A stretch of DNA of 64,000 bases from Naegleria gruberi (lineage: Eukaryota), in assembly GCA_000004985.1 (NCBI GenBank), contig GG738915.1; one strand, 5' to 3'. The notes below the pieces were generated by a model. It was given only the letters and a program-made list of their open reading frames with translations, was not told the DNA's origin and did no database searches. Position 1 is the stretch's first letter; the number at the start of each line of letters is the position of its first letter. The position numbers were made by a program, and so were the translations under genes. This document shows, piece after piece, positions 2,575 to 31,267 of this stretch.

Positions 2575-4400
2575 CAAAAGGATCTCTGAGCTCTTGTAAC
2601 TTGAAACGTATTGCTCTATGTGGAAATCCACTGGGAGATCAAGGAGCCAATTACCTGTCCAAATTCCTAATGAGACATGAAAATGTTCCCCATCTACGTG
2701 AGTTGGATCTTTCTCGCTGTGGAATTAGACAAAATGGAGCTGAATGTATTGCTGAAGCTTTGCTAGTAAAGAGGGAAATTACATCCTTCAAATTTATTGG
2801 AAATCCATCAGAGCAAGGACTGTATACCATATTGAAACACTTGGGATACTCCTCATGTATTGCGGAGATTGATTTCAGTATGACTAGTTCTATTGTAGCC
2901 AATGGTAATTCTGAAAGTATGGTCAAACTGTTGGATCTTTCCACAACTCTCAAGAAGATTAACTTGTGGAAAGCTAATGGATTCCACATTCTCACCCAAG
3001 AAGTATTCAACAGAATTGGTAAATCAAAGAGTTTGAAAGATATTGATATGGCCGAAACAAAATTCAAAGATATTTCACTATTTGCTTTCGCTTTGAAAGA
3101 TAACTACGTATTGGAAACTTTGAATCTATCAAATAATGATATCAAACTCTCTGAGGTGTATCAATTATATTGTAGATTACTTTTGTTACACTTTGAGAAT
3201 GCTAACAAAACGAGAGAATTCTTGGATGGACCTAATGCTGCTGTCCCACCAAAGCTTGTCCATTTACAAAAGCTAACTCTATCTAAGAATAATTTAACTA
3301 ATCTATTACAGTCAAATATCAAAGAGGCAATTAGTATTGGTCAAATAATGAAAATGTGTACAAATTTGAATTATTTGGATTTATCGGGATGTAAAATTGA
3401 CAAAACTCATATGGAAGGAATTGCAGCAGCTTTGGATCCTAAATTCAACCTTCCTCTCAAAACTCTCAAATTGAATAATAATGAGATTGGCAAAACAGGT
3501 TTGAGACCACTTGCCTCTATAATGAAACTCAATACTACCATTGAAGATTTGGACCTCTCTGGTAATGATTTGGGAGTTACAGGAAGTGTTTCATTAGCTG
3601 AAATCATTACAAATAACTCTTCCATCAAGAAATTGAACATATTCTCATGTTTTGTTCAAATTGAAGGAATTGACATTATTTCCAAAGCATTACAACAAAA
3701 CACATCAATCACAGATTTGGATATTGGTTTGAATTCAGCCAAAGAAAGAGGAGCTCTTTCAATTATTGAAATGCTCAAACAAAATACCACTCTTAAGAGG
3801 CTTGGACTCAAATTGAATCATTTAAGTGACAAGACATGTACACAAATTGCCAATATCATTGCTATTGAAAATCCTAAATCCGCAATTCAATATTTAGCTC
3901 TTTCTGGTAATTCTCTTTCAATTTCAACAAGTTCCAATATTTCCATAGTTCTAAACTCTGTAAAGGATAGAGTAATTGAGTTTGATCTTACCAAATTGGT
4001 TGAAGTGAAAGATACAGAAAAACAAAATAGAACTATTTATCTTTCACCACTTCCAAACTCAATTACAATTCAAGATATCAAGAAATTCTTCTATCAACAC
4101 AAATGTGGAGCTATATTGAATGTCTACATTCACAAACATAAGACTCCCAATAAGAAGACCAGACTCAACAAGTATGCCTTTGTAGAGTTTGCTCATCCAG
4201 ACTCACTTCAATTGGCCATACGTTTGAGATATTCTAATAGACCAGAAAAGAAATCTCCAAATGTTGTAAAGCTTTTGAAGAGAATTCGTGGAAATGATGG
4301 TAAGAAAACTAAAGCAAAATGGTATGAATCCAAGCTCATCATCACCAAATCAGGCAATCAACTTCACAATGAAAGAGCCAAAAAGAAAATCAAACATTAA
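2568..4400 (+). CDS. continuation of the same protein: RNI-like leucine-rich repeats plus a C-terminal RRM (RNA-recognition motif) domain
   Basis: Frame 0 is open from 2568, one nt out of phase with the upstream ORF. The LRR periodicity continues across the junction (..LILDSCDITASCVE|ELTKGSLSSCNLKRIALCGNPLGDQGANYL..). The C-terminus has RNP2-like IYLSPL and RNP1-like KYAFVEFA. Stop TAA at 4398-4400. The ORF-track start at 2601 is a TTG. Confidence 0.8.
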   Translation, partial: ELTKGSLSSCNLKRIALCGNPLGDQGANYLSKFLMRHENVPHLRELDLSRCGIRQNGAECIAEALLVKREITSFKFIGNPSEQGLYTILKHLGYSSCIAEIDFSMTSSIVANGNSESMVKLLDLSTTLKKINLWKANGFHILTQEVFNRIGKSKSLKDIDMAETKFKDISLFAFALKDNYVLETLNLSNNDIKLSEVYQLYCRLLLLHFENANKTREFLDGPNAAVPPKLVHLQKLTLSKNNLTNLLQSNIKEAISIGQIMKMCTNLNYLDLSGCKIDKTHMEGIAAALDPKFNLPLKTLKLNNNEIGKTGLRPLASIMKLNTTIEDLDLSGNDLGVTGSVSLAEIITNNSSIKKLNIFSCFVQIEGIDIISKALQQNTSITDLDIGLNSAKERGALSIIEMLKQNTTLKRLGLKLNHLSDKTCTQIANIIAIENPKSAIQYLALSGNSLSISTSSNISIVLNSVKDRVIEFDLTKLVEVKDTEKQNRTIYLSPLPNSITIQDIKKFFYQHKCGAILNVYIHKHKTPNKKTRLNKYAFVEFAHPDSLQLAIRLRYSNRPEKKSPNVVKLLKRIRGNDGKKTKAKWYESKLIITKSGNQLHNERAKKKIKH

Positions 4401-4714: not shown

Positions 4715-5719
4715 ATGGCAGGAGGAGGTTCAACCTACAAATCGACAGAACCAATCGGAACTGGTAGAATATTCTTTTATTGCATTGTTTGGCTGATATT
4801 GGTGATTGGTCTATCGTTTATGAATAAAGCAGTATTTAAATGGACAGAATTCAAGTATCCAGTGCTGCTGTCGACTGTACATATGATTATAAATTGGTTG
4901 ATGGGAAGTTTTGTGTGGGGAAGGATGAATGGAAAGATAAAGGAGGAAGAGGAAAAGAAGGGTCATGATTTGAGACATTTAATAATGTACTTCTCATTGT
5001 TATTTGTATTGAATATTGCTTTCGGAAATATGAGTGTCAAGGCAGTGAATTTATTGTTGAGTCAAGTTTTCAGATCTTCAATGCCAATATTTATAATGAT
5101 TTGTTCGGTTGTGTTGGGTGTTGGAAGTAGACCTAGTACACGCGTTATTCTCACTGTTTTACCAATTATTATTGGAGTTTATTTGACTTGTAAGAAAGAT
5201 GACAGTAAGGTTAGCTCAAATACTGAAGAAGATTTATTGAATATCAAATCATTGGCTATTTTATTAATTGGAAACATTATGTGTGCTCTCAAAACTACTC
5301 TTACCAATAAGTATCTCAATCAGTACAAGTTCCATCCAATTTATTTATTGAGTAAGCTTTCAATGTGGAGCTCTTTTGGAATGTTTGCTTTTGCTGCAGT
5401 GACTGGAGAAGTTTCAGACCTTTTCAACAATAATTTACATGTTTTATATAATGTCAAGACAGTTGGATTTGTCATTTCTACAGGATTTGTTGCATTCCTA
5501 TTGAACTATTTCAATTTCCTTGCCAATTCCTCTACAAGTCCACTCACAATGGGAATTTGTGGATTGTTACATCAAGTGCTGACAGTCTACCTTTCTACCA
5601 TTGTTTTTGATACATCTTTGAATCAAACTAATGTGATTGGTATTTGTCTTGCAATGATTGGCAGTGCTCTCTATACTTTTGTAAAGTATTTAGAAGCTCA
5701 AAAAGTAAAATCAAACTAA
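4715..5719 (+). CDS. multi-pass membrane transporter, DMT superfamily (triose-phosphate / nucleotide-sugar transporter-like), 334 aa
   Basis: aaaaaATG start. About 10 hydrophobic helices in a ~330-aa protein, the typical size and organisation of TPT/NST carriers. Family assignment rests on topology and length only. Confidence 0.55.
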   Translation: MAGGGSTYKSTEPIGTGRIFFYCIVWLILVIGLSFMNKAVFKWTEFKYPVLLSTVHMIINWLMGSFVWGRMNGKIKEEEEKKGHDLRHLIMYFSLLFVLNIAFGNMSVKAVNLLLSQVFRSSMPIFIMICSVVLGVGSRPSTRVILTVLPIIIGVYLTCKKDDSKVSSNTEEDLLNIKSLAILLIGNIMCALKTTLTNKYLNQYKFHPIYLLSKLSMWSSFGMFAFAAVTGEVSDLFNNNLHVLYNVKTVGFVISTGFVAFLLNYFNFLANSSTSPLTMGICGLLHQVLTVYLSTIVFDTSLNQTNVIGICLAMIGSALYTFVKYLEAQKVKSN

Positions 5720-5769: not shown

Positions 5770-6840
5770 ATGGCAGAACAAGTTAGGGTTGAGTTATTCG
5801 ATTTTTCAACAACACCATCACAGCAAGGCTGGGAATTAAATAAATTTCTGCAAGAAAGGTTTCGTAAGAAGAAACCGACCGGAGCTTCATTTGCATATTC
5901 CACCTTTCGTAAAATTAATACTATTAGCACAAGAAGGTGGAAACGACGATTCATTGCCAACTCGTTTGCAATTTGCAAATCTTTAAATTGTATTCTCATG
6001 CTCTCATCAAACAACACGGTCTATGTTTATTCTCTCAAATCTAAAAGGTATCTGAATCGGTTTCCACTCTTTCCCTTTGGATATAATTTGGGAGGACCTC
6101 CACTACATTTTAAAGTGGTAGAACGAGAGCAAGATCCAAATAATCAGGCTCACATTATTGTACTACTTTCGGATAGTTTTAATGGTAAATTGGAAATACA
6201 TAAAATTAATTTGGACACATTGATGAAAGAACGAAGTCGTATGAAGAATAGAAATACCAGGATTTTAGATAGCTATGCTTCTAATTTGGTGTGGAAAATT
6301 GAGAAGAATATACCCAAGACAAATGGAACTGCCACAATGCTATTTGTTCCAAATAGAGAGTTTGAGAATGTTGAAAAGGGTGACGCTGCTATATTGATCT
6401 ATTTCACTAATCAAAAGAATATCCTAGATTGTTTTAGTTACAAGTATGGAAAACAACTGAGTTCTATAACTGTCCCTGATACTATAAGTAGCTCAAGTAC
6501 TGTATTACATTTAGCTGTCAGTGGATCTAATTTAATATTTTACAGGTATAACTCTGCTGATTTTGTGGATCAAAGAATGAATGTAATACAGAGTTTGAAA
6601 ACAAACATTATTTGCATTGGAAGCGCTGTCATCTATGAGCCAAATTCAAATGTGTTTATAACCCAGCAATCATCTAAAATTATGGCATTTCAATATCGCG
6701 ATGATAATCTCAGTGTTGTTGGATCACGCAAGTTGAGAGTAAAAGGTAAAACAATCGATTGGTCAATGATGCATTTCAATGATTCCAATGGAGAGCTATT
6801 GGTTCTGCATCGTAATGAGAAATTATTAACATTCAAGTAA
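5770..6840 (+). CDS. hypothetical protein, 356 aa
   Basis: aaaaaATG start only 50 bp after the stop of the preceding gene. Uninterrupted ORF with coding-like composition. No motif recognised. Confidence 0.5.
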   Translation: MAEQVRVELFDFSTTPSQQGWELNKFLQERFRKKKPTGASFAYSTFRKINTISTRRWKRRFIANSFAICKSLNCILMLSSNNTVYVYSLKSKRYLNRFPLFPFGYNLGGPPLHFKVVEREQDPNNQAHIIVLLSDSFNGKLEIHKINLDTLMKERSRMKNRNTRILDSYASNLVWKIEKNIPKTNGTATMLFVPNREFENVEKGDAAILIYFTNQKNILDCFSYKYGKQLSSITVPDTISSSSTVLHLAVSGSNLIFYRYNSADFVDQRMNVIQSLKTNIICIGSAVIYEPNSNVFITQQSSKIMAFQYRDDNLSVVGSRKLRVKGKTIDWSMMHFNDSNGELLVLHRNEKLLTFK

Positions 6841-7382: not shown

Positions 7383-9155
7383 TTAGTTGTCGTCTACTGT
7401 ACTCTCCTTTAACACAGCATCTTCAAAATTTTGGATTTGATGATCAATAAAGTGTTGAAAACGAGAACAGTCACTAACTTTCCATTCAATTTCATTCCAT
7501 TTCGAAAGTAATTTAAACATCATGCTGGAGAAAGAGGATAGATCTTTAAGAATTTGAACTTTTTTCAATTTTGGTGGTTTAAACTGTTGCAATAACTCAA
7601 TATCTTTGTACGATGAAAATGTACATTCCAATGCAATTAAATTCTCATAGTTTTTACCCAATTCTTCAAAAAATTCTTTTGGAAATTCTCCAATTGTACA
7701 AATAATACTTAAATATTCCAAATTTCTCAGTACATCCAATTTAATAAAATCCATCAATTGCTCCTTTCCACTGATTACCACTGATAATCTCCTTAAATGT
7801 TTTAAATGTTCAATCTTTTCCAAATTTTGAGAGATATCTGAATTTGTAAACAGCGATTCCAAATTATTCAAACATTCATTAGAAAACATATTAAAATCTA
7901 TATCTCCTAGGACTTTGATACGTAAATGCTTCAAATTTTTAACTAAGCTCAAATTACTCAAACTAAATGCCAAATCTTTGGTCGCATATAAATTAAATAC
8001 TAATATTTCTAAATTTCTCAATGTATTATTACTGAAAAATTTTTCAGTGTCCTTAAATACTCTCGAAACTATTTTCAATATTTTCAGATTTGAAAAGTTA
8101 TATTTCCATACATGATTAAGACAATAACTGGCTTGATCAGTGTCTTGTGAATAATCAATCCTTAAGTATTTTAAATTTAGAATCATATCAGTGTCAACAA
8201 CCTCATCATCTTGCTCACTTGCATCTATCATGTATGCTTTTAAAATTTCTAATGTTTTAATATTATTTAGAAGCATTATTAGTTGCTTTTCACCATCGAG
8301 CTGTATATCCAAAACTGAGAGGAGTTTCAAATTTAAAATCCGAGAAATATTACTAAATAGATCATCAATTCTCAATATTCTAAGACAGTCAGTATAATTA
8401 TTGATAATTGGTGATAGTTTTTTCATAATATCATACTCCTCCATTGAAATATCTAAAAGTTTCAAATTATATAAATTTCTGTCTTTTAATTCTATTTTGT
8501 TATAACTAGTTTTAATTTTTATAAATTGTATGGTAGGTTTCTTGAAATGGAATGTGAAAGTTTTATCATTTTCCTCAAATAACCTCTTAATGACAAGGTG
8601 TTTGATGTTTACACATTTGAGAATTAATTTTAATAGAGAATCGGGTTCATACTGAGAAAGTATTTCCAAATTTTCTATTTGAATTAAATCACAGTTAGGT
8701 ATTAGAGTAGATTTCCTTATCAATAAATTTTTAATAGTATTAATAACATTCCTAAATTGTTTTGAAACTGTCAAGTATTTAAAAATCTCAAAATCATAAT
8801 TTAAATATGCAAATATGTTACATAATACATCATCACAAAATAATTCCGAACAGGTTTTGATTTGTTTGGTTTTCAACAGTTTATCGTGATCCATATCTTG
8901 ATCACTAATTTCCTCAAATTTGCGTTTGTTCTTATTTTCATCAGTGCTACTTCCATTTGATTTTAATTTACATAATTCAATTTCCAATTTTAATTCTTCC
9001 TGTCTTGCTTTTGCTTTGGCTTCTTCTTGAGTGAATTGTAATTTCAACTTCCACAATTCAAATATTTGCTCCGAAGAGAGTCCAAGCCTTTGACATTGTT
9101 CAATGAAACCATCAGAGTCCCCACCATCCTTTAACACAGCATTTTGTTGCGGCAT
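7383..9155 (-). CDS. F-box / leucine-rich-repeat protein, 590 aa
   Basis: Reverse-strand ATG in aaaaaATG context. Acidic/coiled N-terminus, then an F-box-like block (CSELFCDDVLCNIFAYLNYDFEIFKYLTVSKQFRNVINTIK), then repeated L-rich ~25-aa units. Confidence 0.7.
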   Translation of the reverse strand: MPQQNAVLKDGGDSDGFIEQCQRLGLSSEQIFELWKLKLQFTQEEAKAKARQEELKLEIELCKLKSNGSSTDENKNKRKFEEISDQDMDHDKLLKTKQIKTCSELFCDDVLCNIFAYLNYDFEIFKYLTVSKQFRNVINTIKNLLIRKSTLIPNCDLIQIENLEILSQYEPDSLLKLILKCVNIKHLVIKRLFEENDKTFTFHFKKPTIQFIKIKTSYNKIELKDRNLYNLKLLDISMEEYDIMKKLSPIINNYTDCLRILRIDDLFSNISRILNLKLLSVLDIQLDGEKQLIMLLNNIKTLEILKAYMIDASEQDDEVVDTDMILNLKYLRIDYSQDTDQASYCLNHVWKYNFSNLKILKIVSRVFKDTEKFFSNNTLRNLEILVFNLYATKDLAFSLSNLSLVKNLKHLRIKVLGDIDFNMFSNECLNNLESLFTNSDISQNLEKIEHLKHLRRLSVVISGKEQLMDFIKLDVLRNLEYLSIICTIGEFPKEFFEELGKNYENLIALECTFSSYKDIELLQQFKPPKLKKVQILKDLSSFSSMMFKLLSKWNEIEWKVSDCSRFQHFIDHQIQNFEDAVLKESTVDDN

Positions 9156-9531: not shown

Positions 9532-11513
9532 ATGAAAATAACGCTCGGTTTCAAACCAGGCGTTTTTAATGCTCTTGTTCAAGTGCCTGATCTTTTCAGT
9601 GTTATTCTTCAATATTTGGATTGTTCCTCATTGTTTGCCCTAACGATGGTGAATAAGAAATTATTTGGATTATTTGATGAGAGTAAAATTGATGAATTGG
9701 TTCAATCATCATCGGAAGAGGTGTTGAACGTTGTGACAATTGATCCTAATTTATGGTTGAATTTGGTTTCATACTATGAAGAAAGGTTGAGAAAATTAAA
9801 ATTGGAGTTTAATTCTAACGATTTGTAAGTTGGCTTATCAAGTAGTTGAATATTTACTTGTTTTCTAAAAGCTATCGATACTATCCAATGAACGTAAATT
9901 TTCAAGAATATATTGAGCTTGTGAAGCCAAAAACAACAGAGAAGGAAAATGTAAAAACTAGCAGTATTAGAGAAATACTTGAAATTATTGTTGACTGTAG
10001 GAAAAAATTGAAAAGGTTGTACTCTGATTGTTGGAAACAAAAGAAACCTGAAGAATATGGTGTTGAGTTTTCCAAGAGTGGAAGATCTAGTTGTAAAACT
10101 TGTTTTAAGCCAATTCCATACGGAGTTCTCAGAGGCTATCAGGACAACCACGAAAACTATTACAAAGCTCATGAATGTCACCATTTGACTTGCTTTTATA
10201 AAATACTATTGACTGAAAATGTACGTGAAGAAGATGTGAAATATGAAGAGGAGAAACAAAAAGCAGCCATTTCCAAGCTTTATGAGTTTATAGCAAAGGA
10301 GAAAAAATTAATACAGAAATCAAAGTGGCAATGCACCACTTGTGATGGATGTAATGTACTATTGAATGGAGATGCATACATGTCAGCAGAAAAAGGAAAG
10401 ATGGATCTATGTGCAAAGTGCTATGTCACTAACGATGAGCTGGTTTCTGGAAAAAGTGAGAAGGGGCCTTTTGTCCCTACCCCTCCTTTAAAACCTTTCC
10501 AAAAATGTAGATATTGTAAGGAACAGATCAAAAGGGTCTTATTTAATTGTCATCAATGTAATATTGGCTTTTGTGGAGAGTGTTTAAAATCCTTAAGGTG
10601 GTTTGATCACAAAAAACACTTTATTAATGTAATTGGAAATGCTCTTGATGATGAAATGAAATGTTTAACTGCTGACTTCAAACCTGAAGATGCTAAACCA
10701 TTACCAGTGAGTGCTTATGAAAGGTTTTCTGTTCTGGATTTGATGGAAGAATTTTTAGGAGAATCTAAAAGGGATGCAGGTCAACCAACTCCTTCTGAAA
10801 GATTCACAGCTACCCCCAACAAGAAAACAGATCTATCAGGGATAAAGTCACAAAAAACTGCAACAATTACAAAACCAAGTAATAACGAATCTAACCACTC
10901 TTCTAAAACCAACACTCAACCAAAGAAGCCAGAAAGTACAAAACCAACAACCGAAAAACAAGTTCAAAGCAACTTGAAACTCTCCAAATCGCAACAAGCT
11001 AGTTCCAAGACAATCCCTCAGAAGTCTTCTGTTCAACAAACTCTTTCATCAACAACTTCTAAAAAAAGAGTTTTAATTGAATTGAGCTCTGATGAAGAAT
11101 CAGAAGATGAAATCGATCTAAAGAAATTAGAGGCAACTACAGGATCTAATGAGATTCCAAAATTAAAACCTGAAGTAGTTATTGCCTCAAAAGTTGAACC
11201 AGCCAAGAAGAAATCAAAACAAGAGAAATCCAAGAAGAAAGAAAGCAAGGAAAAAACAAAAAAGAAAAAACCAAAGAAAGAAGAAAACAGTGATGAAGAG
11301 AATGACGAAATCTACCTTGTGGAAAAGCTGTTGGATAGAAAAATAGTGCATGGAAAGCCATACTATCTAGTAAAGTGGGAAGGTTATCCCAACTCAGATA
11401 ACTCGTGGGAACCAAACAACAATATTTCACCAGATCTAATTGAAGATTTTGAGGAGGAATTTGAGAAAAACAAGCCACGAGTAGCAAGCAAGACGAAGAA
11501 GAGAAAAATATAG
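9532..11513 (+). CDS. F-box + ZZ-type zinc fingers + C-terminal chromodomain protein; two exons (9532-9824, 9872-11513)
   Basis: aaaaaaaaATG at 9532. F-box-like VPDLFSVILQYLDCSSLFALTMVNKKLFGL. The upstream ORF ends in ttG|TAAGT (donor 9825). The AG at 9870-71 restores the frame into the long downstream ORF, giving a 47-nt intron. Downstream are C-x2-C...C-x2-C ZZ-like fingers (WQCTTCDGCNV...LCAKCY; CRYCKEQ...CHQCNIGFCGEC), a K/S-rich linker and a canonical chromodomain (EIYLVEKLLDRKIVHGKPYYLVKWEGYPNSDNSWEP). Confidence 0.65.
9825..9871 (+). other. predicted 47-nt spliceosomal intron (GTAAGT...TTTTCTAAAAG)
   Basis: Donor GTAAGT overlaps the in-frame TAA. The acceptor is phase-compatible. Only ~60 nt would otherwise separate the F-box ORF from the next ATG. 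Confidence 0.55.
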
Positions 11514-12979: not shown

Positions 12980-14184
12980 ATGGTGGGATTGAATGGAACG
13001 AATACAACTATTGTAGCCGAAACATCTAGGGAAGAGTTTGGACCATTTCAGTACATGATTTTCGGGGTCAATATTCCCTTTCTGATAATATATTCAATTC
13101 TATTTAGTGCTACCTTGATTAGTTTGATATTTAGTGTAAAGAAACAAGATAAGACGAAACGGAAAACCTTCTACATCCTTATACTTGTTCTGTCCTTGCT
13201 GTTTGCAGTCATTTTGAATTTACTTACAAGAATTGGTTCCGAACTTTGCTATTTCGAAACTGATCCGGATAGACTTGAACGAATATATGGACTGGTAAAG
13301 GCTATTGACAGAACCATGATAGGATTTACAATGTCTATGGAACTTTTATTAATTGATTACATGTCTTTTCTATTGTAAGTACTTAGAATACTTTCCATTT
13401 TATGATGATTAGTTTGGAAACAACTTGGAAAGTGAGCCATTTCATCTAAGCATTTCAAAATTGCTAAGTTTATAACTTTTGGATTGGCTTTGGTTGTTTT
13501 GATTTGTTTAATGTTTCTTCTGAGTGGATTTTTAGTATTAGGAGGTTTCTTTTACGTTTATGGAAATCTTGGGATATTGAATACGATACTGACTTGTCTA
13601 TTTACTGCCTCTGCTATATTGGTAGGGGTTGCTTCCAGTATGCTCCTGATAAACACTCATGTAGGTTTCTAATTATTTAAAATTTGAACAAAATCAATTA
13701 GTATTGTGGGAAATTAATGCTGAAAACACTTGTTAATGGAAGAAAACAAGCCATGACACTTTCCTCATCTCCACCACAATTGAAAGAAAGTTATGATTTG
13801 AAAACAAGAGCCCTCAAGAAAGTGTGGAGTATCATTATTGTAGTTACACTAACTTCTGTTTTTCAGATTATTGGATTTATTTTCACTCCATTATCAATGG
13901 TGGATCATTTTATGATGAGTGGATTTCATATATGTTACAATATATCAATAATGGTCCTTGTAGTTCTGTATTTATATTTATATGGACCTGTGAAGGAATT
14001 TCAACAATTATTCGAAAAGAGAGATTCAAAAGATTTGACAACCATTGTGACTGCATTCGATTCAACAGGATCTGAACGGATTCAGAAAGGATTAACCTTA
14101 TCACATGTTTCGCCTGTGTCTCCTACCGATAGTGAAATAACCTCCAGGCAGGAATTGTTTCAGATAACAAATTCTAGGATATAA
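12980..14184 (+). CDS. seven-transmembrane (GPCR-like) receptor gene, ~3 exons, copy A
   Basis: ATG at 12980 (aaaaacagaATG). N-terminus carries N-glycosylation sites (NGT, NTT). Six to seven hydrophobic helices, short basic intracellular loops, a long K/R-rich third loop and a Ser/Thr-rich C-tail. Intron 13661-13701 (GTAGGT...TTAG, 41 nt) is phase-consistent and identical in copy B. Exon 1 ends in ttG|TAAGT (donor 13375). The phase-compatible acceptor is AG 13523-24 (150-nt intron). The AGs at 13450/13468 would give a cleaner 7TM topology but are 1 nt out of phase, so the first junction is uncertain. An alternative start is ATG 13511. Confidence 0.5.
13661..13701 (+). other. predicted 41-nt intron (GTAGGT...ATTAG) in the 7TM gene
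   Basis: Joins ..LLINTH to YCGKLMLKTLVNGRK.. Without splicing, two tiny ORFs 44 nt apart result. The sequence is identical in copy B (29827-29867). Confidence 0.5.
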
Positions 14185-14444
14185 CAAAATACTTTATTAA
14201 GACATGCTGAATAACTTTAAATCTGAATTATTATTAATATTAATATTCAATTCATTATGTTGCATAACAGTACTTTGCAACATTATGATGGAAACTTAAG
14301 TTGGAGCAGATTACAATAGTGGAATGATAAGACAAGATATCGTACTCAATACGTAAAGCTTCATAAATTAGAAAGGTGAAAATAGACTTCAATTCTTCCA
14401 CTATCCTTCTAATTATCCAATCACGACTTGAAAAAATCAAAAAA

Positions 14445-15631
14445 ATGAAAACACTCATCAAGGTACGATTTTTTCTTTTTCAAAATGATGATTAAATATT
14501 ATCTTTATGTCGGAATGGAAAATTCAAACTCTTATTTTCATAATTTTAATGTATTTAATATATTGATAGATTAAATATTTTCCTCCTGTCATTGTTGTCT
14601 TGACAGCAATTTCTCTCCTATTTTGTATAGTTTTGAGCTTGTTAACAGCACCAGATAGTGTTTCTAAACATTTGCCTGCCCTGAGTGAAACAGGAATATT
14701 TCCTCCGACAAAATATATTTTCACAGCATCCCTTGTGATACCATCCATATGTTTAATAGTTGGAGCAATTTTGCAATTTATTACAACAAAGGAAAAATTA
14801 ACCTCATTGGATCATCAACGACACACTTTAAATTATTGTAATGGATGTTTTAGAATGGGATGGTTGAGTATTGCATCCTGTATTTTTGCTTTGATTTCAG
14901 GATTTTGTTTACTTGGACTTGGAATTGTGCCAATTATGGGAGGAGAAGTTATTGATGATAGTTTACTTTCGAATTCTACTACCTCTACTACTGTATCTTT
15001 TATAACTAGTTCTACTAGTCAACAGTCAGCAGAATCAATTGAAATTCTTCCATATACCATCATTCACTTGATATTTACATTCTTCTTCATGTCAACTGTG
15101 TTTATTCACATGGTACTCAATACCATTTTCAATGTAGTAAGTGCAATTATAGTAATTATTTATTAAGCGGAATGCATCACCAATTCATTTAATATCCAGT
15201 TATATGATAAGAAAATTTCTCCAAAAAAGAAAATTCTCAATCCTTGGGTTATTGTAAAAATTGTCAGTTCATGCTCATTCTTGGTTGTGGGGCCAATCTT
15301 TAGTTTTATTATGGGAATTTTAGTTACAGTCACATGTTCTCAAACTGAGGTTATTAACAAGACTTGTCCACTCATGAATTTATTCCAATTATTCCTTGGA
15401 GCTCTATCTCAATACAGTATTGTTGCCTCAATTTTAGTTTTCATGCTCACTTACATGTATGATTTCAAAGATGCATCCATCAGTATTAATGCTGAAGATC
15501 CAAGAAATGATATTCAAGAGAGGTTATCAGGACTTTCCTTAGAAAAGGATTTTGAATTGGAAGAGGACGATCTTGGAGCAGGAGACACCAACAGATTACA
15601 CACTCTTGAGGATGAAGACGAATTTAATTAA
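14445..15631 (+). CDS. multi-pass membrane protein of unknown family, 3 exons (14445-14462, 14570-15136, 15200-15631), copy A
   Basis: Mini-exon ATGAAAACACTCATCAAG in aaaaaaATG context. 107-nt AT-rich intron GTACGA...TTGATAG, which carries a 10-bp indel in copy B. Exon 2 has no ATG for ~95 codons. GTAAGT at 15137, then AG 15198-99 (or 15228-29) continues the frame into exon 3. At least six TM helices, a Ser/Thr-rich extracellular loop (SNSTTSTTVSFITSSTSQQSAE) and an acidic C-tail. Confidence 0.5.
14463..14569 (+). other. predicted 107-nt intron
   Basis: GT...AG, ~80% AT, phase-consistent. Conserved with an indel in copy B (30726-30841). Confidence 0.55.
15137..15199 (+). other. predicted 63-nt intron (GTAAGT...ATCCAG); alternative acceptor 15228-29
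   Basis: The single in-frame TAA between two same-frame hydrophobic ORFs lies inside a GTAAGT-initiated segment. Confidence 0.45.
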
Positions 15632-16294: not shown

Positions 16295-18247
16295 ATGACG
16301 AGTCATCAAACAGGGCAGAGTTCGTCTTTTACGGTTCAGGCGGGCGGCTCATCCTCTTCTTCGACAGTAGTTCCTCCTTCGTCTTCATCATCATCGGGTA
16401 GTGCTGCTGATAGTAACAATAACAATTTGAAGGCAACTAGTGAAAATCATAAAAATGATGATGCCAAATCAACAACAAGTACAAATAGTAGTTTACATCA
16501 ACAACAACAACAACACAGCGAATTAAACATCTCTGGAAATAATTTAAATGTTTTGGTTACACCTGTAGCATTGGATGGAAAGTCTGAGCCATTATCTCCT
16601 ACAGCACACAGAAGAGCAACATCAATTTCATCAAATGGATATCCAGCAAATACACCAGCAACACCTGTCCATCCACAATTTACTTCTCATCCTGAAGATG
16701 ATAATGATTCTGATAATGGAAAATTAAAAGGAAAAAAGAACAAGAAGAAAAAGTGGCATGTCAATGCTATGGGTGAAATTGTTTACAAGGAACACAATTC
16801 ATATAATTTAATGCGTCAAATCCAAATGGGTATTAGATCTGCAATCAGTGAAATAACACCTAAAAAACAAAAAGATGTACTATTACTTAAGGATTTTACT
16901 AATATTAACAAAATGCCGTTTCCAGAAAAGGGATCAACAAGAACACCTCCACACGAATTCCCATTCTTTGATTTTTATGATTACTCACCATTTCCTTTTA
17001 GACATTTGAGAGAACGTTTTGGTATTGATGCTTCCAATTATCTTGTTTGTTTATGTCATGAACTGTCTCTCTCAATTCTTGGCACTCCTGGTAAGAGTGG
17101 TGCTCTCTTCTTTTTCTCTGCTGACATGCAATACATGTTAAAGACTGTAACAAAAAAGGAATCAAAATTCTTGAGAAAAATTTTGCCAGATTACTATAAC
17201 CATGTTATGGCCAATCCAAACACTCTCATTACTCGTTTTTATGGAATGTATAGTATAAAACCTCGAGGAGGTAAAAATGTAAGATTTATTGTCATGAACA
17301 ATGTGTTTGACACAACAATGTATGTTTCTGAGAGATACGATTTAAAGGGTTCAACTGTTGGACGAGAAGCATCAGAGAAAGAAAAAAAGAGAGAAACACC
17401 AATTTATAAGGATTTAGATTTTTTGAGGAGAAGTAGCAAGTTAAAAGTTGGACCTCAAATGAAGAATCTCATTATGAATCAACTTCAAGTTGATGCTACA
17501 TGGTTGGAAAAGATGAAGATCATGGACTATAGTTTACTAGTTGGTGTTCACAGATTGGATCCTGAATTGGATGCAGAAGTATTGAAAGAAGCTCAAAATT
17601 GTAATATCAAATTGTCAGATTCTGACATTCCTTCGGAAGCTTTTACTACTGTATTTAATCATGGCTCAAGTGTGGCTTCAAGTTCAATGACTTCTACATC
17701 ATACTTAAACGGAACCGATCAGGGAACAGGCGCTTCATCTTCTTTAAATACTACAAATCCAATTTCAGATCATCATGACCAAGTTGTAAATAGTACAGAT
17801 ATTGCCATTGAGGTTAGTGATGAATCTCATCCAACATTGAATGGTTCATCAAGCACCAAAACCATAGAAAATACACCATCAACACATCATCCAACAAGTA
17901 TGTCAACTACTACACAGGACAGCAGAAAGAGTAGTGAAAGCACCTCCTCATTCTTTGGAAGATTTATGAATCACAGACTGAGTGTTTCTTTGAAAAAACA
18001 CTACAGAGGTCCACGTGCCTCTCTATTCCAACAATTCCATGGTGGTACACTGTCACTTCCTTTAGAGGATGGTAGCCGTGAAATTTACTACTTTGGTATT
18101 ATTGATTTGTTACAAAAATGGAATAACAAGAAACAAATAGAAAATATTTTCAAGGGCCTTGTAGCTGACAGAAACCAAATTTCTGCAGTCTCACCAAAGA
18201 ATTATGCAATGAGATTTGTAAAATTCTTGGGAGATGGTTTACAATAA
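16295..18247 (+). CDS. phosphatidylinositol-4-phosphate 5-kinase (PIPK family, Mss4-like) with an S/Q-rich N-terminal extension, 650 aa
   Basis: aaaaaaaaATG start. PIPK catalytic-core motifs GKSGALFFFSADMQYMLKTV, RFYGMY, RFIVMNNVF, MDYSLLVGVH and the C-terminal IIDLLQ block. Confidence 0.85.
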   Translation: MTSHQTGQSSSFTVQAGGSSSSSTVVPPSSSSSSGSAADSNNNNLKATSENHKNDDAKSTTSTNSSLHQQQQQHSELNISGNNLNVLVTPVALDGKSEPLSPTAHRRATSISSNGYPANTPATPVHPQFTSHPEDDNDSDNGKLKGKKNKKKKWHVNAMGEIVYKEHNSYNLMRQIQMGIRSAISEITPKKQKDVLLLKDFTNINKMPFPEKGSTRTPPHEFPFFDFYDYSPFPFRHLRERFGIDASNYLVCLCHELSLSILGTPGKSGALFFFSADMQYMLKTVTKKESKFLRKILPDYYNHVMANPNTLITRFYGMYSIKPRGGKNVRFIVMNNVFDTTMYVSERYDLKGSTVGREASEKEKKRETPIYKDLDFLRRSSKLKVGPQMKNLIMNQLQVDATWLEKMKIMDYSLLVGVHRLDPELDAEVLKEAQNCNIKLSDSDIPSEAFTTVFNHGSSVASSSMTSTSYLNGTDQGTGASSSLNTTNPISDHHDQVVNSTDIAIEVSDESHPTLNGSSSTKTIENTPSTHHPTSMSTTTQDSRKSSESTSSFFGRFMNHRLSVSLKKHYRGPRASLFQQFHGGTLSLPLEDGSREIYYFGIIDLLQKWNNKKQIENIFKGLVADRNQISAVSPKNYAMRFVKFLGDGLQ

Positions 18248-18307: not shown

Positions 18308-20065
18308 CTATTGTACAAGGCATTTACTACCGCTTGGTGTTGGCTTCTTTCCCAAGATATTCATCTTTGTAAATGGAGTCCTGGTTGTTGGACAACTTGC
18401 AATTAAAATATCACCATTTCCATCTCCTCCAATTAAAGCTTCATCATCCATTTCCAAACTCATTACTCCACTTGTAGGAATAAAGTTTACAACTTTCCAA
18501 GGACAGTTCTTAGTATCATTTCCAACCATCACTCCAGATTTGATAAATTTATCAATTTGTGGTGCTTCAGCAAGTTTTGAACCATTCAATGATTGAGCAA
18601 ATTCATCTGTTGTCATAACGACAACTCCAAGCTTGGATCCAACCACAATCTTTTGACCATCAAATTGTAATCCTCTAATAGCTCCCAATCTGAAAACATC
18701 CATATCATATAATATAGAAGGATCTGGATTTTCCTCTTTTGATGAAGAAGATGAAGAAACTTTTCTATAGTCAATAATTTGAATAAATCCTCTATCAGAT
18801 CCAGCTAGGAATAGATATTTTCCTGCCGATGGATCAAAGCATGAAGCATTGACTTCATAGAGATATGCATCAGTAAATACCTCTCCCACAACATTGGAAG
18901 ATCTTGTATCGAAAATCTTGATATACTTATCTGCAGAGGCAGTAAGAAAGAGATCTGAATATCTTCCAGATGGATTACAATCGACATCATAGATTGCACT
19001 CTTGTGAGTGGAAACACCATTCTTATCACAAATCAAAGTTTTCACTTCTTTCATAGTGGAAGCATCGAATATTTTGGCCACACCATCAGCTCCACCAGTT
19101 ACAAAGCTACTTTCATTAATAATTCTCAAATTCCATATACCATTCTTGTGATTGTGGGGAACACGTCCGATATTCTTCATAATTTCCCCATCCTCAGCCT
19201 CTGGATCATAGGAACCATAATTCAATATATTGGAAAATCCTCCAGTCACTAGAAAGTTTGGAATTCTATGTTGTTGAGTATCAATGCACCACAGCAAACT
19301 TCTCTCTTCATAAGTTTCCTTCCATTCATATTTATATTCTACATTGCTTACATATTGAGTTTCATCATCAAATGCAGCTTTTCCATTCACTTCAATATCA
19401 TAAAAATTAACACTGTGAGAACAGGTCATTAAATGAATCTTGTTATGATCACTGGTCGATCTTAGGAATGTCAGATAATTAATTCCAACACCAGGATCTG
19501 GTAATTCAGGTTTCTTCTCACAAGAAGCAAATGTCTTTTTATGATTGATAAAGAAATCATTTTCCATTTGATTTTCCTCTCCTTCTCTATATCCTCTAAA
19601 TTTATACCATCCCTTATAGAGTGTCAAATGTTCATATTTGAAAATTTCATAGAGTGAATGCGCATTTGTATTCTCAAAAACTCGACGTCTTACTATACTT
19701 TTTTGTGAGGGAGGAATTTCAAGGTGGGTTTTTTCATCATTTGTTGAAGATGAATTATTTTCATTTCTAATAAATTGTTTCCACAATGCATCATTCCTCG
19801 ATGTATACAAAAAGGTTGAATTTACCAATGAAATATTTAAAATAATTTCCCTATATTCAAGGAATGAAAATATGAGAATTAAAACATCTTCGGGAACATC
19901 AGTTACATGATCCAATGAAGAATCACCCAATTTAAATGGTCCTATTTCATCTACATTATTAGTAGAAACTACTCTTTCCGAAACATCATTTAAAACATTT
20001 TCATTTGGTTGATCATCAACATCTTCATCAACATGAGAGGATGAACCTGTTGGTTGTTGAAGCAT
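18308..20065 (-). CDS. F-box / WD40-repeat protein, 585 aa
   Basis: Reverse-strand aaaaaaaATG. F-box DVLILIFSFLEYREIILNISLVNSTFLYTSRNDALWKQF. WD-like repeats (GGADGVAKIFD, TASADKYIKIFD). Confidence 0.7.
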   Translation of the reverse strand: MLQQPTGSSSHVDEDVDDQPNENVLNDVSERVVSTNNVDEIGPFKLGDSSLDHVTDVPEDVLILIFSFLEYREIILNISLVNSTFLYTSRNDALWKQFIRNENNSSSTNDEKTHLEIPPSQKSIVRRRVFENTNAHSLYEIFKYEHLTLYKGWYKFRGYREGEENQMENDFFINHKKTFASCEKKPELPDPGVGINYLTFLRSTSDHNKIHLMTCSHSVNFYDIEVNGKAAFDDETQYVSNVEYKYEWKETYEERSLLWCIDTQQHRIPNFLVTGGFSNILNYGSYDPEAEDGEIMKNIGRVPHNHKNGIWNLRIINESSFVTGGADGVAKIFDASTMKEVKTLICDKNGVSTHKSAIYDVDCNPSGRYSDLFLTASADKYIKIFDTRSSNVVGEVFTDAYLYEVNASCFDPSAGKYLFLAGSDRGFIQIIDYRKVSSSSSSKEENPDPSILYDMDVFRLGAIRGLQFDGQKIVVGSKLGVVVMTTDEFAQSLNGSKLAEAPQIDKFIKSGVMVGNDTKNCPWKVVNFIPTSGVMSLEMDDEALIGGDGNGDILIASCPTTRTPFTKMNILGKKPTPSGSKCLVQ

Positions 20066-24546: not shown

Positions 24547-27019
24547 ATGAAAGAGAAGAGCAATCATTCTAAGGCTTGGTCTGAATCAACTTCATACAAC
24601 GTTTACAAGAGGAGTAGTACGAATAAGCAACAACAGCCGAATCGTGATGGCCCCAACCATATGAATATTTCTTCTTTTAATATCATCAATGGAGAGTGCA
24701 ATGCTCAACCCTGCAGATTGTTTGATAGGCATCAAGAACAGATTACCAAAGACTATCTTCCAACTTTCATTAGGGATCTGAATGCTTATATGCAAGCAAA
24801 CTCTATCAATTACCAACTCAATTGTCCTCAACAACAACAACAACAGCCTCAACAGCCTCAACAACAACAACCATCATTACCTCAACAAATACCCATTCAT
24901 CCAATAGATAATTCATCACTACCTGCTTCTCCATCATCATCACCAGCATCAACACCATCATCATCAATATCAAATGGAGAATTAGGAGGACTGGACATTA
25001 TGCATGACGATGAATTATTAGATAATCTTGATTTCATGGAAGTTTGGAGAGAGAATTCACTGAAAACACTAAGAAAGCAACTAACAAAGAAAAAGGATTG
25101 CTCTATTGGCAATAATAACCAGCTATCCGATCTATTGTTCGATTTATTATCATTCTATACCGATTCCAACATTTCAAAGGTTAACATGAGACGAATAGTT
25201 GATCTCTTTAACAAGTACTCGGCGATTGGAAAAAAGATTCCAACCCTAGATACTCTCATCAGTAGAATTCACAATGTCAACAATGAGTATGAAAAGGTGT
25301 TTTATTGTTCAAAGCATTTGACAATTATTAAAGGTGAAACTCTGAAGGCTTGTTCCTGCGAGCAGTGTAGTGTTGAGGGTGTATTGAACAAGGAGAATAT
25401 TCAACACTTTTGGACTAAAAGTATTGCCTCGTGCATATCGAATATGGTTGATAGGGTAGGCTTGAGAAGATTCCAATCACACCTATCTGCAGCTACTGAT
25501 ACGAACATTCCTACAGTGGGCCAGAAACATTTCATTAAGGACTGTGTTGATGGGGTCGAGTATAAGAGAATTACAGACAAGTGGGTCATTCGAGATGATC
25601 CCAACACTATTTGCCTCACCATTAGTGCTGGCACTGATGGTGGCTCTGTCAACAAGTCCAACTCTAAATCCATCAATCCTCTCTTCTTTTGGATAAATGA
25701 GATTGGATTGAAACACAGATTTTCCTATCCATTGACTTCATTGGCAGCATATGCAAACCACAAAATACCCTATCAAATACTCTTGTCCAAATTTATAGAT
25801 GAACTCAATGAATTGGACAAGGGTTTGACTATTGTTACCAAGGGAGGATGTAAATTCTTTCTAAAAGTAAGTTGATTGTGTGATTCATTGGACAACAAGC
25901 CAATTATTATTATTATATACATGTGAAACAAATAATTGGATTTGTTACTAGGTTCGCCTCTTTCAAATGATTGTCGATTTGGTTGCTGCAAAAGATCTCT
26001 TGCAAATCAATGGTCACTCGGGCCTGTGTGGTTGTAGATGGTGTCTACATACAGGAGAAAAGAAGGGAGAAAACACTGGTGTATTGTATTGTGTAGGAAA
26101 TTCGAGTTGTAATAGTGGAGTCAATAGAGTTTGGAATAACATGATGCCACAGTTTTGCAAGTTGCAAAAAAATGAGATTTCTTCCTTCGATGGTGTGATT
26201 GGCATTTCAATTCTCCTCAAGCTCAGCTATTTTAGATGGACTACTCAGGTAGCCTGTGATATTTTGCACAATCTTTTAGAGGGTCTTTGTAAAAAGATTT
26301 TGAAGAATATTTGTTCATTGTACAAGACTTTAATTCCCAGCATTGATGGTAAGTATTGTGGTGAAGGAAAAATATGAACTCAACCCCTTGGTGTTTAACA
26401 ATTGAAAGAACGCATCAAACTTATTGAAACTCCATCCATGTATCACAGAGAGATTCGTTCCTTGAATGAGGCTGCAAAGTTCAAAGCTATTGAATACTAC
26501 ATGTTGTTTGCCTATTGTAAGGATGTTTTCAAGAATATTATTTCTGAAAACCACTTTAACATTTTAAAAAGTGTCGAAACTTTTATAGGACTCATCATGA
26601 ATCCTAGTGAGAAGAGTGAGCAAGCCAAGGCAAGTCTATTGCAAATGGCATTCAACTTGCTGCGAAGTGTGGAAATTGAATTTGGTGAGGAGGATATTAC
26701 AATGGCCTCTCATACTGTTCTTCACTTTCCATTGTAAGTACTCTACTAGTTATTCAGAATGCAACAATTTCATATAATATTGATTGTTTTAAAACAAGAT
26801 CGATATGGAATTTGGGCCCTCTCTATACCAAACTCTACGTTCATGTTGGAGGATTTGATGGGCTCTCTTACTTCCTCCATCTATGGAGGAAAGGCCAACA
26901 TGGATCATAAGGCTTTGGAGAATTGGTCCATTCATCAAATGACCAGTTTGAAAAGGGTGAGACAATTCACACTTCCAATACGAACATGGTTTGTATCTTT
27001 TTTTTTCAAAGGTTGCTGA
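24547..27019 (+). CDS. transposase-derived protein, Transposase_21 + DUF4218-like (CACTA/EnSpm - KDZ superfamily); 4 exons (24547-25866, 25952-26348, 26409-26733, 26758-27019)
   Basis: Poly-Q/S N-terminal region, then CxxC clusters. The SAGTDGG...S.WP...INE...P block, and FFLK|VRLFQMIVDLVAAKDLLQINGHSGLCGCRWC (parallel to the EnSpm TnpD motif F.LRA.L.W.I.D.PA..L.G....G..C..C), are restored only after removing an 85-nt GTAAGT...TACTAG intron. Further GTAAGT introns of 60 and 24 nt keep the frame into a DUF4218-like tail (YGIWALSIPNSTFMLEDLMG). The assignment is from remembered family motifs, not a database search. Confidence 0.55.
25867..25951 (+). other. predicted 85-nt intron
   Basis: GTAAGT donor overlapping the ORF end. 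TTGTTACTAG acceptor. Splicing restores a conserved transposase motif. Confidence 0.6.
26349..26408 (+). other. predicted 60-nt intron
   Basis: GTAAGT...TTAAC...GAAAG, phase-consistent (phase 1). Confidence 0.5.
26734..26757 (+). other. predicted very short (24-nt) intron
   Basis: GTAAGTACTCTACTAGTTATTCAG. Phase-consistent and needed to continue into the DUF4218-like region. The length is unusually short, so it could instead be a disabling lesion. Confidence 0.35.
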
Positions 27020-29631: not shown

Positions 29632-29681
29632 NNNNNNNNNNNNNNNNNNNNNNNNNNNNNNNNNNNNNNNNNNNNNNNNNN
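29632..29681. other. assembly gap (50 N)
   Basis: Run of n separating the gene at 27939 from repeat copy B. Confidence 0.99.
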
Positions 29682-30350
29682 TCTTCTGAGTGGATTTTTA
29701 GTATTAGGAGGTTTCTTTTACGTTTATGGAAATCTTGGTATATTGAATACCATACTGACTTGTCTATTTACTGCCTCTGCTATATTGGTAGGAGTTGCTT
29801 CCAGTATGCTCCTGATAAACACTCATGTAGGTTTCTAATTATTTAAAATTTGAACAAAATCAATTAGTATTGTGGGAAATTAATGCTGCAAACACTTGTT
29901 AATGGAAGAAAACAAGCCATGACACTTTCCTCATCTCCACCACAATTGAAAGAAAGTTATGATTTGAAAACAAGAGCCCTCAAGAAAGTGTGGAGTATCA
30001 TTATTGTAGTTACACTAACTTCTGTTTTTCAGATTATTGGATTTATTTTCACTCCATTATCAATGGTGGATCATTTTATGATGAGTGGATTTCATATATG
30101 TTACAATATATCAATAATGGTCCTTGTAGTTCTGTATTTATATTTATATGGACCTGTGAAGGAATTTCAACAATTATTCGAAAAGAGAGATTCAAAAGAT
30201 TTGACAACCATTGTGACTGCATTCGATTCAACAGGATCTGAACGGATTCAGAAAGGATTAACCTTATCACATGTTTCGCCTGTGTCTCCTACCGATAGTG
30301 AAATAACCTCCAGACAGGAATTGTTTCAGATAAAAAATTCTAGGATTTAA
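29682..30350 (+). CDS. 7TM GPCR-like gene, copy B (5' part lost in gap); exons 29682-29826 and 29868-30350
   Basis: About 99% identical to 13516-14184. Differences in the coding part are 5 synonymous and 2 nonsynonymous (K/Q, T/K). Same 41-nt intron. Confidence 0.5.
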
Positions 30351-30707
30351 CAAAATACTTTATTAAGACATGTTGAATAACTTTAAATCTGAATTATTAC
30401 TAATATTAATATTCAATTCATTATGTTGCATAACAGTACTTTGCAACATTATGATGGAAACTTAAGTTGGAGCAGATTACAACAGTGGAATGATAAGACA
30501 AGATATCGTACTCAATTGATTTCTTACTAATTACACTAATTGGTAATTATGCTTGATTCCAGTTCTACAGTATTGTATGGATTCAAAGATTGTAAAGTTT
30601 CATTTCTATTTACTAGTATCAAACAATTAGAAAGTTGAAAATAGACTTTCAATTCTTCCACTATCCTTCTAATTATCCTTTGAATCACGACTGAAAAAAT
30701 CAAAAAA

Positions 30708-31267
30708 ATGAAAACACTCATCAAGGTACGATTTTTTCTTGTTCAAAATGATGATTAAATATTATCTTTGTGTCGGAATGGAAAATTCAACTCTTATTTT
30801 CATAATTTTAATGTATTATCATGTATTTAATATATTGATAGATTAAATATTTTCCTCCTGTCATTGTTGTCTTGACAGCAATTTCTCTCCTATTTTGTAT
30901 AGTTTTGAGCTTGTTAACAGCACCAGATAGTGTTTCTAAACATTTGCCTGCCCTGAGTGAAACAGGAATATTTCCTCCTACAAAATATATTTTCACAGCA
31001 TCCCTTGTGATACCATCCATATGTTTAATAGTTGGAGCAATTTTGCAATTTATTACAACAAAGGAAAAATTAACCTCATTGGATCATCAACGACACACTT
31101 TAAATTATTGTAATGGATGTTTTAGAATGGGATGGTTGAGTATTGCATCCTGTATTTTTGCTTTGATTTCAGGATTTTGTTTACTTGGACTTGGAATTGT
31201 GCCAATTATGGGAGGAGAAGTTATTGATGATAGTTTACTTTCGAATTCTACTACCTCTACTACTGTA
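30708..31267 (+). CDS. multi-pass membrane gene, copy B (3' part lost in the 31-kb gap); exon 1 30708-30725, exon 2 30842-31267
   Basis: Identical mini-exon MKTLIK. The intron carries a 10-bp insertion relative to copy A. Exon 2 shows one synonymous difference. Confidence 0.5.

Follow-up and report, generated by a model that had tools for sequence, protein, structure and literature searches.

A predicted two-exon gene of Naegleria gruberi that may join an F-box-like segment, PARP-type and ZZ zinc fingers and an HP1-like chromodomain

Introduction

Among described proteins, KDM2A/FBXL11 and KDM2B/FBXL10 combine an F-box with chromatin- and DNA-binding zinc fingers, and could bring the scaffold of an SCF (Skp1-Cul1-F-box) ubiquitin ligase to chromatin. 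UHRF1 provides an analogy in function only: this ubiquitin ligase uses separate modules to recognise methylated H3K9 and a DNA feature. Here we describe positions 9532–11513 (plus strand) of a 64,000-nt stretch of Naegleria gruberi contig GG738915.1 (referred to below as the window), which probably hold a single two-exon gene with a 47-nt GTAAGT...AG intron. Its predicted 644-residue product would carry an F-box-like segment, a PARP-type zinc finger (zf-PARP), two ZZ-type fingers and a chromodomain, and we propose that it may act as an SCF receptor on chromatin.

The N. gruberi product would differ from both of these systems in its parts. The KDM2 proteins contain JmjC, CXXC, PHD and LRR domains and are not known to carry a chromodomain, a PARP-type finger or ZZ domains, whereas the N. 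gruberi F-box is N-terminal and scores below threshold. UHRF1, a RING ligase, has tandem Tudor, PHD and SRA domains and is not homologous to the N. gruberi protein. Many protist F-box proteins carry lineage-specific binding domains, and each of the modules considered here is well known; the unusual points are that four of them occur together and, should the intron be real, that an F-box and a chromodomain share one chain. No second F-box–chromodomain fusion was found among about 15 billion predicted proteins searched with the zinc-finger core as the query. The combination is unusual, not revolutionary, and involves no new principle.

Heterochromatin carrying trimethylated lysine 9 or lysine 27 of histone H3 (H3K9me3, H3K27me3) and 5-methylcytosine has only recently been mapped in N. 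gruberi (PMC12344493). If the gene is spliced as predicted, then the reference annotation of a model heterolobosean misses a 644-residue chromatin protein, and the ubiquitin system would have a direct tie to the reading of methyl-lysine in a lineage remote from animals, fungi and plants.

Structure of the predicted gene

The first open reading frame (ORF1) runs from the ATG at 9532 to a TAA at 9826–9828 and has 98 codons. Its stop codon lies inside a perfect donor hexamer, GTAAGT at 9825–9830 (TTG/TAAGT), and an AG at 9870–9871 is in phase with it, such that the TT left over from exon 1 and the C at 9872 make a Phe codon and lead into the long frame at 9846–11513 (ORF2). The spliced coding sequence has 644 codons plus a stop, and the terminal stop is the only one, in a genome of 33% GC. 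With its GT...AG boundaries, phase 2 position and a donor typical of the genus, the interval 9825–9871 reads as a candidate spliceosomal (U2-type) intron. It is T-rich (43% T, 28% GC) whereas the exons are A-rich (39% A, 35% GC), and it contains a pyrimidine tract and a TTTAC motif 15–19 nt (the A at 16) upstream of the start of exon 2. Stops are present in all three frames within 9826–9871, and the frame of ORF2 is closed additionally at 9810, 9816 and 9843; a single-base assembly or indel error therefore cannot fuse ORF1 and ORF2. The features of the predicted gene, its homologues and the annotated neighbours are listed in Table 1.

A preliminary description of this locus had placed a 98-codon ORF ending in TTG/TAAGT, an in-phase AG and a 47-nt intron here, and these coordinates proved accurate to the base. 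It had also pointed to the short distance between the two ORFs, about 60 nt; the figure is right, in that 59 nt lie between the ORF1 stop (9828) and the first ATG of ORF2 (9888), but as an argument for one gene it does not hold, since two genes elsewhere in the window are annotated separately and are only 50 nt apart.

For a comparison with other introns of the genus, we reconstructed single-intron solutions for annotated genes in the loci fetched from N. fowleri and N. lovaniensis (n = 7). These introns are 56–111 nt long, and five of the seven start with GTAAGT. In papers other than the N. gruberi genome paper, no intron figures for N. gruberi were found. That introns are gained or lost between Naegleria species follows from a nearby F-box/WD40 gene (18308–20065), which is intronless in N. 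gruberi, whereas its orthologues have an intron of 58 nt in N. fowleri (L001, 17790–19599) and 56 nt in N. lovaniensis (L003, 17453–19239), at nearly equal offsets in the coding sequence (1271 and 1250). A 24-mer spanning the spliced junction gave 0 matches in metagenome contigs.

Several other splice sites were considered at this junction. In-phase acceptors at 9961, 9964 and 9970 (introns of 137–146 nt) and weaker in-phase donors at 9766 and 9807 were rejected, since GTAAGT paired with the first in-phase AG is the more parsimonious choice. Use of the AGs at 9841–9842 or 9844–9845 would give introns of 18 and 21 nt, which are too short, and the second also meets a stop.

The context of the start codons also favours a gene that begins at 9532. 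The ATG of ORF1 lies in the context TTTAAAAAAAA-ATG. AAAAAATG, the context shared by annotated genes of the window, is found 15 times in 31 kb. Nine of these occurrences, that at 9532 among them, open an ORF of 98 codons or more, and the nine include all six of the annotated starts that we checked. The first ATG of ORF2, at 9888, lies in ACTATCCA-ATG and does not have the A-run. As ORF1 shares the A-run context of annotated genes and ATG 9888 does not, one gene starting at 9532 is supported. As a separate observation, AAAAAATG is a strong translation-start context and offers a cheap and useful signal for gene starts in the N. gruberi genome.

Table 1. Coordinates of the predicted gene, its predicted parts, the two homologues and annotated genes of the window
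Feature	Coordinates	Strand	Residues or size	Remarks
Predicted exon 1	9532..9824	+	293 nt	97 codons + 2 bases
Predicted phase-2 spliceosomal intron	9825..9871	+	47 nt	GTAAGT...TTTACTTGTTTTCTAAAAG
Predicted exon 2	9872..11513	+	546 codons + stop	TAG stop at 11511-11513; uninterrupted frame
F-box-like segment	9574..9711	+	aa 15-60	Pfam match aa 20-52 = 9589-9687
Predicted PARP-type (CCHC) zinc finger	10065..10316	+	aa 163-246	Ligands C172, C175, H202, C205
ZZ-like finger 1	10326..10433	+	aa 250-285	Degenerate, without the middle Cys pair
Predicted ZZ finger 2	10500..10628	+	aa 308-350	Complete, eight ligands
Low-complexity linker	10704..11303	+	aa 376-575	K/S/E/T-rich; no Pfam match
Predicted HP1-class chromodomain	11313..11456	+	aa 579-626	Pfam Chromo and solved-structure matches
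Basic C-terminal tail	11457..11510	+		...KNKPRVASKTKKRKI; from sequence only
Homologue P0136, N. lovaniensis	L004 4001-5233		410 aa	Single uninterrupted ORF
Homologue P0133, 20-kb eukaryotic metagenome contig	L005 4001-5080		359 aa	Uninterrupted ORF
NAEGRDRAFT_74596	4715-5719			Annotated; triose-phosphate-transporter family
NAEGRDRAFT_53577	5770-6840			Annotated; without a Pfam domain
NAEGRDRAFT_53578	7383-9155	-		Annotated N. gruberi gene; F-box/LRR
NAEGRDRAFT_53581	18308-20065	-		Annotated N. gruberi gene; F-box/WD40

Homologues and the case for a single gene

Homologues provide the main reason for regarding ORF1 and ORF2 as two exons. We searched exhaustively with phmmer, using ORF2 residues 1–276 as the query, against 1.84 billion cluster representatives that stand for about 15 billion predicted proteins. 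There were 23 matches, mostly plant-type proteins with repeated PARP-type fingers, and just two of them span the whole query region: one protein from N. lovaniensis (P0136) and one from a eukaryotic metagenome contig (P0133), the only architectural homologues found. ORF1 aligns with residues 1–80 of the N. lovaniensis protein at 35% identity (expectation value, E, 6e-11), starting at residue 1 of both (MKITLGFKP and MKIPLTYRP), and ORF2 aligns with residues 79–318 of the same protein (E 1e-13); ORF1 also matches the metagenomic protein (E 4e-6). In a three-way alignment the proteins are collinear through the F-box-like segment, zf-PARP and both ZZ fingers, and all of the zinc ligands are invariant. 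Because both ORFs map back to back onto one polypeptide in each homologue, we conclude that they probably form one gene, as the preliminary description had proposed for the F-box, ZZ and chromodomain parts with a 47-nt intron between them. In the two homologues themselves the F-box/zf-PARP/ZZ/ZZ core is one polypeptide, as read from their sequences.

The homologues share the module order of the N. gruberi product (F-box-like, zf-PARP, ZZ-like, ZZ), with all of the zinc ligands aligned, but differ from it in being intronless, in their length of only 359–410 residues, in having neither linker nor chromodomain, and in lying at loci without synteny. They end near the start of the linker, and no chromodomain was found in either of them; among the three proteins it was seen only in the N. 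gruberi copy. The linker and chromodomain thus look like a late addition, on the N. gruberi side, to an older F-box/zf-PARP/ZZ gene. If splicing is as predicted, this would be a clean and datable case of domain accretion, with a core common to N. lovaniensis and an uncultured eukaryote and a chromodomain in N. gruberi only.

Searches for further relatives added little. A profile search with the three-sequence alignment added only two bacterial-looking proteins with double zf-PARP domains, and a scan of metagenomes for relatives of the zinc-finger region found none. At the loci of N. fowleri and N. lovaniensis that hold the orthologue of a neighbouring phosphatidylinositol-4-phosphate 5-kinase (PIP5K) gene, the gene of 9532–11513 is not present.

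Domains of the predicted product

The chromodomain is unambiguous at the level of sequence, HP1-like, and has its aromatic cage intact. Pfam Chromo (PF00385) matches at 56.1 bits, above the cut-off of 25.1 (E 3.5e-15), over profile positions 1–52 of 53. Its best matches among solved structures are HP1beta/CBX1 (E 7e-16), then CBX5, Drosophila HP1 and Rhino (E to 5e-14). When aligned with HP1beta (1ap0/1guw), Y579 falls opposite the Y of EEYVVEK, and W600 and Y603 fall opposite the W and F of KWKGF, which we take to be the aromatic-cage residues Y21, W42 and F45. Like the HP1/CBX proteins, the domain also has an acidic stretch on its N-terminal side and a basic one on its C-terminal side. In contrast to these, the N. 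gruberi domain is C-terminal, following a 575-residue F-box/zinc-finger part, and no Pfam match to Chromo_shadow was found, only 18 residues being present after the chromodomain; without a chromoshadow domain, the N. gruberi protein is not an HP1 proper. The basic tail may be a nuclear localisation signal. The disordered linker of 200 residues is composed of 19% K, 15% S and 12% E, with an acidic patch and a KKK-rich stretch ahead of the chromodomain, and is absent from the homologues.

The first Cys cluster is, as judged from its sequence, a PARP-type zinc finger and not a ZZ finger. In the N. gruberi protein zf-PARP (PF00645) scores 28.8 bits (E 2e-6), under its cut-off of 39.3, and the metagenomic homologue exceeds this cut-off at 56.5 bits. 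A phmmer search of solved structures gives PARP1 Zn1 (E 5e-8), with KSGRSSCKTC...LR...HHLTCF aligned to the CCHC ligands, and the four ligands of the N. gruberi finger are invariant in the three-sequence alignment and occupy the ligand positions of PARP1 Zn1. The fingers of PARP1 Zn1, DNA ligase III and the plant ZDP 3'-phosphatase share the same signature (KSGRSSCKxC...LR...HxxCF) and the four conserved ligands; unlike these proteins, the N. gruberi product would have a single finger and no catalytic PARP, ligase or phosphatase domain.

Two further clusters resemble ZZ domains, and the family profiles of both match the ZZ domains of known proteins that include HERC2, p300/CBP, p62 and PRT1. 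ZZ-like finger 1 scores 18.1 bits against Pfam ZZ (PF00569; E 0.0024, cut-off 21.4), and its family profile matches the ZZ domains of PRT1 (E 7e-5) and HERC2. It differs from all of these known ZZ domains in lacking the middle Cys pair: only C255, C258, C278 and C281 are kept, each invariant, so that the ligand set of a two-site cross-brace is incomplete. ZZ finger 2 has ligands for both sites of a cross-brace, with C310, C313, C324, C327, C332, C335 and H344 invariant, followed by H348. On its own it matches ZZ_ADA2 weakly (16 bits, cut-off 27.5, E 0.014), and its family profile matches the ZZ domain of HERC2 (E 1.6e-5) and also those of dystrobrevin, p62 and p300/CBP. The metagenomic homologue exceeds the Pfam ZZ cut-off at 24.0 bits, in two stretches.

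The F-box is divergent and is the weakest of the domain calls, and rests on the family. F-box motifs span about 40–50 residues, and the curated profiles that recognise them are PF00646 and PF12937. In the consensus of the family F-box-like scores 21.3 bits (cut-off 24.3) and F-box 18.0 (cut-off 20.5), with no other family matched, and the N-terminus of the metagenomic homologue exceeds the F-box-like cut-off at 26.5 bits. Against solved structures, the best match of the family profile is the F-box of beta-TrCP1 (E 0.023), exactly on the F-box helices. On the C-terminal side of the F-box motif follow the binding modules (zf-PARP, both ZZ fingers and the chromodomain), an order that holds only if the intron is spliced.

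The domains foreseen in the preliminary description have thus fared differently. A textbook chromodomain and a lysine-rich linker are both as described, and the two ZZ-like Cys clusters are borne out by their family profiles. Of the profile searches that it had suggested for the spliced product, Chromo is above its cut-off, whereas F-box and ZZ fall below theirs; the F-box similarity itself stands, as the sole family matched and with one homologue passing, but the N. gruberi segment, the N. lovaniensis N-terminus and the family consensus all score below the cut-off. The zinc content had been understated, as a third cluster, the predicted DNA-binding module of PARP type, was not named.

Proposed function

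The arrangement of an N-terminal F-box followed by four ligand-binding modules is that of an SCF receptor, and these modules point to chromatin; for this reason we propose a chromatin-tethered SCF receptor. The SCF and methyl-lysine functions are deduced from the domains only. Through its F-box the protein would attach to Skp1-Cul1 and serve an SCF ubiquitin ligase as substrate receptor. For the chromodomain the expected ligand is H3K9me3 or H3K27me3, for the ZZ fingers N-terminal peptides (the histone H3 tail, for example) and for the PARP-type finger DNA, possibly where it is nicked or broken; jointly, the modules would hold the ligase on marked or damaged chromatin and lead to ubiquitylation of a chromatin-bound substrate.

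The PARP-type finger of PARP1 recognises DNA breaks, and the solved ZZ domains matched by the family profiles include complexes with the histone H3 N-terminus, SUMO1 and N-degrons, as given by the molecule names of the structures. A ligand for the chromodomain is available, since N. gruberi is reported to have H3K9me3/H3K27me3 heterochromatin (PMC12344493). A more specific version of this proposal is that the protein is a lineage-specific SCF receptor in which an HP1-type chromodomain was added to an older F-box/PARP-finger/ZZ protein, and which would be drawn to sites that combine H3K9me3 or H3K27me3 with a free H3 tail and a DNA lesion; we put this version forward tentatively, as a conjecture that may well prove wrong.

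Weighing the alternatives

A number of observations count against a single, spliced and functional gene. At 47 nt the predicted intron is shorter than the shortest annotated Naegleria intron that we reconstructed, its acceptor is AAG rather than YAG, and the junction falls within a stretch of about 18 residues to which nothing in the homologues corresponds. At 21–35% identity to the N. gruberi protein, these homologues have diverged strongly, and their loci share no neighbouring genes with the window. A word-index homology search with the spliced product gave no match at E ≤ 1e-3, itself included, and neither the spliced product nor ORF1 nor ORF2 from ATG 9888 was present in the protein collection by exact look-up. 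The gene of 9532–11513 is unannotated, and is missing from every protein collection searched, including the N. gruberi proteome. To these can be added the separate annotation of NAEGRDRAFT_74596 and NAEGRDRAFT_53577, with a stop-to-ATG gap of only 50 nt, which indicates that tight spacing alone is no bar to there being two genes, and the low scores of the F-box and the poor structural models discussed below.

Some of these points would be accounted for by two independent genes, one encoding a 98-residue F-box-only protein (9532–9828) and the other a 541-residue zinc-finger/chromodomain protein from ATG 9888, with the GTAAGT at the stop a coincidence. The window has 14 copies of the hexamer where about 12 are expected, which is no enrichment, so taken alone the hexamer is weak evidence for an intron; a TAA stop with G before it and GT after it, however, is expected by chance in only about 1% of cases by our own estimate from base composition. 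Moreover, both halves are collinear, back to back, with single uninterrupted ORFs of two other organisms, ATG 9888 does not have the A-run found at the annotated starts, and 59 nt leaves no room for a promoter or poly(A) region unless the transcripts overlap. We consider two genes improbable. It is likewise improbable, in our judgement, that the locus is a silent or decaying copy, that is, a once-continuous F-box/zinc-finger gene that has been interrupted in N. gruberi and makes no functional protein. This would explain the missing annotation, and it agrees with the lack of an intron at the junction site in the homologues, with the position of the junction in a segment that they lack, and with a level of identity far below the 72% seen between species for the neighbouring PIP5K. 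Yet the spliced frame is open for 644 codons up to its terminal stop in an AT-rich genome, the zinc ligands and three aromatic-cage residues are all intact, the canonical start context is kept, and the interruption has exactly the shape of a spliceable intron and not that of a random lesion. Missing annotation is also not peculiar to this gene, as other real-looking genes of the window (a hydrolase ORF and Frag1-like spliced models) were likewise not found in the protein collection.

The structure could also be right and the function wrong: the N-terminal helical segment may not be a working F-box, in which case the product would be a multivalent reader of chromatin or DNA, or a scaffold, unconnected with SCF ubiquitin ligases. 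The Pfam F-box score of ORF1 is 15.2 bits (E 0.02), under the cut-off of 20.5, the N-terminus of the N. lovaniensis homologue is likewise below the F-box cut-off (E 0.08), and the match of the family profile to solved structures, given above, is modest in its E value. The consensus Trp of the F-box is replaced by Leu and the leading Leu-Pro by Val-Pro in the sequence of ORF1. AlphaFold2 models made with the three-sequence alignment were too poor for a fold search and do not inform on this, with pLDDT (predicted local distance difference test) scores of 50 for ORF1 and 47 for the zinc-finger region. Set against this, F-box and F-box-like are the sole Pfam families for ORF1, for the family consensus and for the N-terminus of the metagenomic homologue, where the curated cut-off is passed; the best matches to solved structures fall on the F-box helices of beta-TrCP; an N-terminal motif followed by binding domains is the standard layout of F-box proteins; and a neighbouring Naegleria F-box gene also lacks the Trp. 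On balance we think the absence of a working F-box unlikely, if by no means far-fetched, and we retain as the probable interpretation a two-exon gene whose product has a divergent F-box.

The surrounding locus

The window is AT-rich, at about 33% GC, and contains a run of N at 31268–62617 (31 kb). The PIP5K ORF at 16295–18247 is 100% identical to an N. gruberi protein, with N. lovaniensis and N. fowleri proteins next, both at 72%. Within 11 kb there are three F-box-type genes, at 7383–9155 (minus strand), 9532–9824 (plus strand) and 18308–20065 (minus strand). The predicted gene and NAEGRDRAFT_53578 are transcribed divergently and are separated by a 376-nt spacer. The closely spaced genes NAEGRDRAFT_74596 and NAEGRDRAFT_53577 could be joined by in-phase GT...AG pairs whose donors are weak (GTAAAA at 5705 with AG at 5793 or 5823 is one example), and their separation may merit a check.

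Other features of the window

Two adjacent ORFs in different frames are present near the start of the window, at 463–2574 (a ubiquitin-conjugating E2 domain, then LRR-like sequence) and 2601–4400 (LRR_6 repeats and an RRM). LRR-type sequence flanks the break at about 2572–2600, at which there is no GTAAGT, and the break could come from a frameshift or an assembly error, or else be an atypical intron. As such, the 703-residue ORF of 463–2574 is not in the protein collection.

The region 12980–14184 contains a gene for a multi-pass membrane protein, the first ORF of which also ends in TTG/TAAGT (donor 13375); no in-phase acceptor was found from this donor into the next open segment. A 132-residue ORF of this region is present in a Logan contig (ERR1078381) that is 98% identical to, and collinear with, the genome, from which we conclude that the contig is unspliced DNA of a related strain.

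Positions 13516–14995 and 29682–31267 form a segmental duplication of 97–99% identity in blocks of 835 and 645 nt, which includes a 155-residue ORF (13717–14184, equivalent to 29883–30350). The second copy begins directly after a 50-nt run of N (29632–29681) and ends in the 31-kb gap; the repeat may be an allelic or haplotig artefact of the assembly rather than a true duplication.

A candidate four-exon gene is located at 24547–26910, in which GTAAGT is the donor at 25867 and at 26349 and the third junction follows 26733. Its product of about 717 residues gives no Pfam match. It has a Q-rich N-terminus and a Cys-rich CGCRWCLHTGE motif, and may resemble transposase-derived (KDZ-like) proteins.

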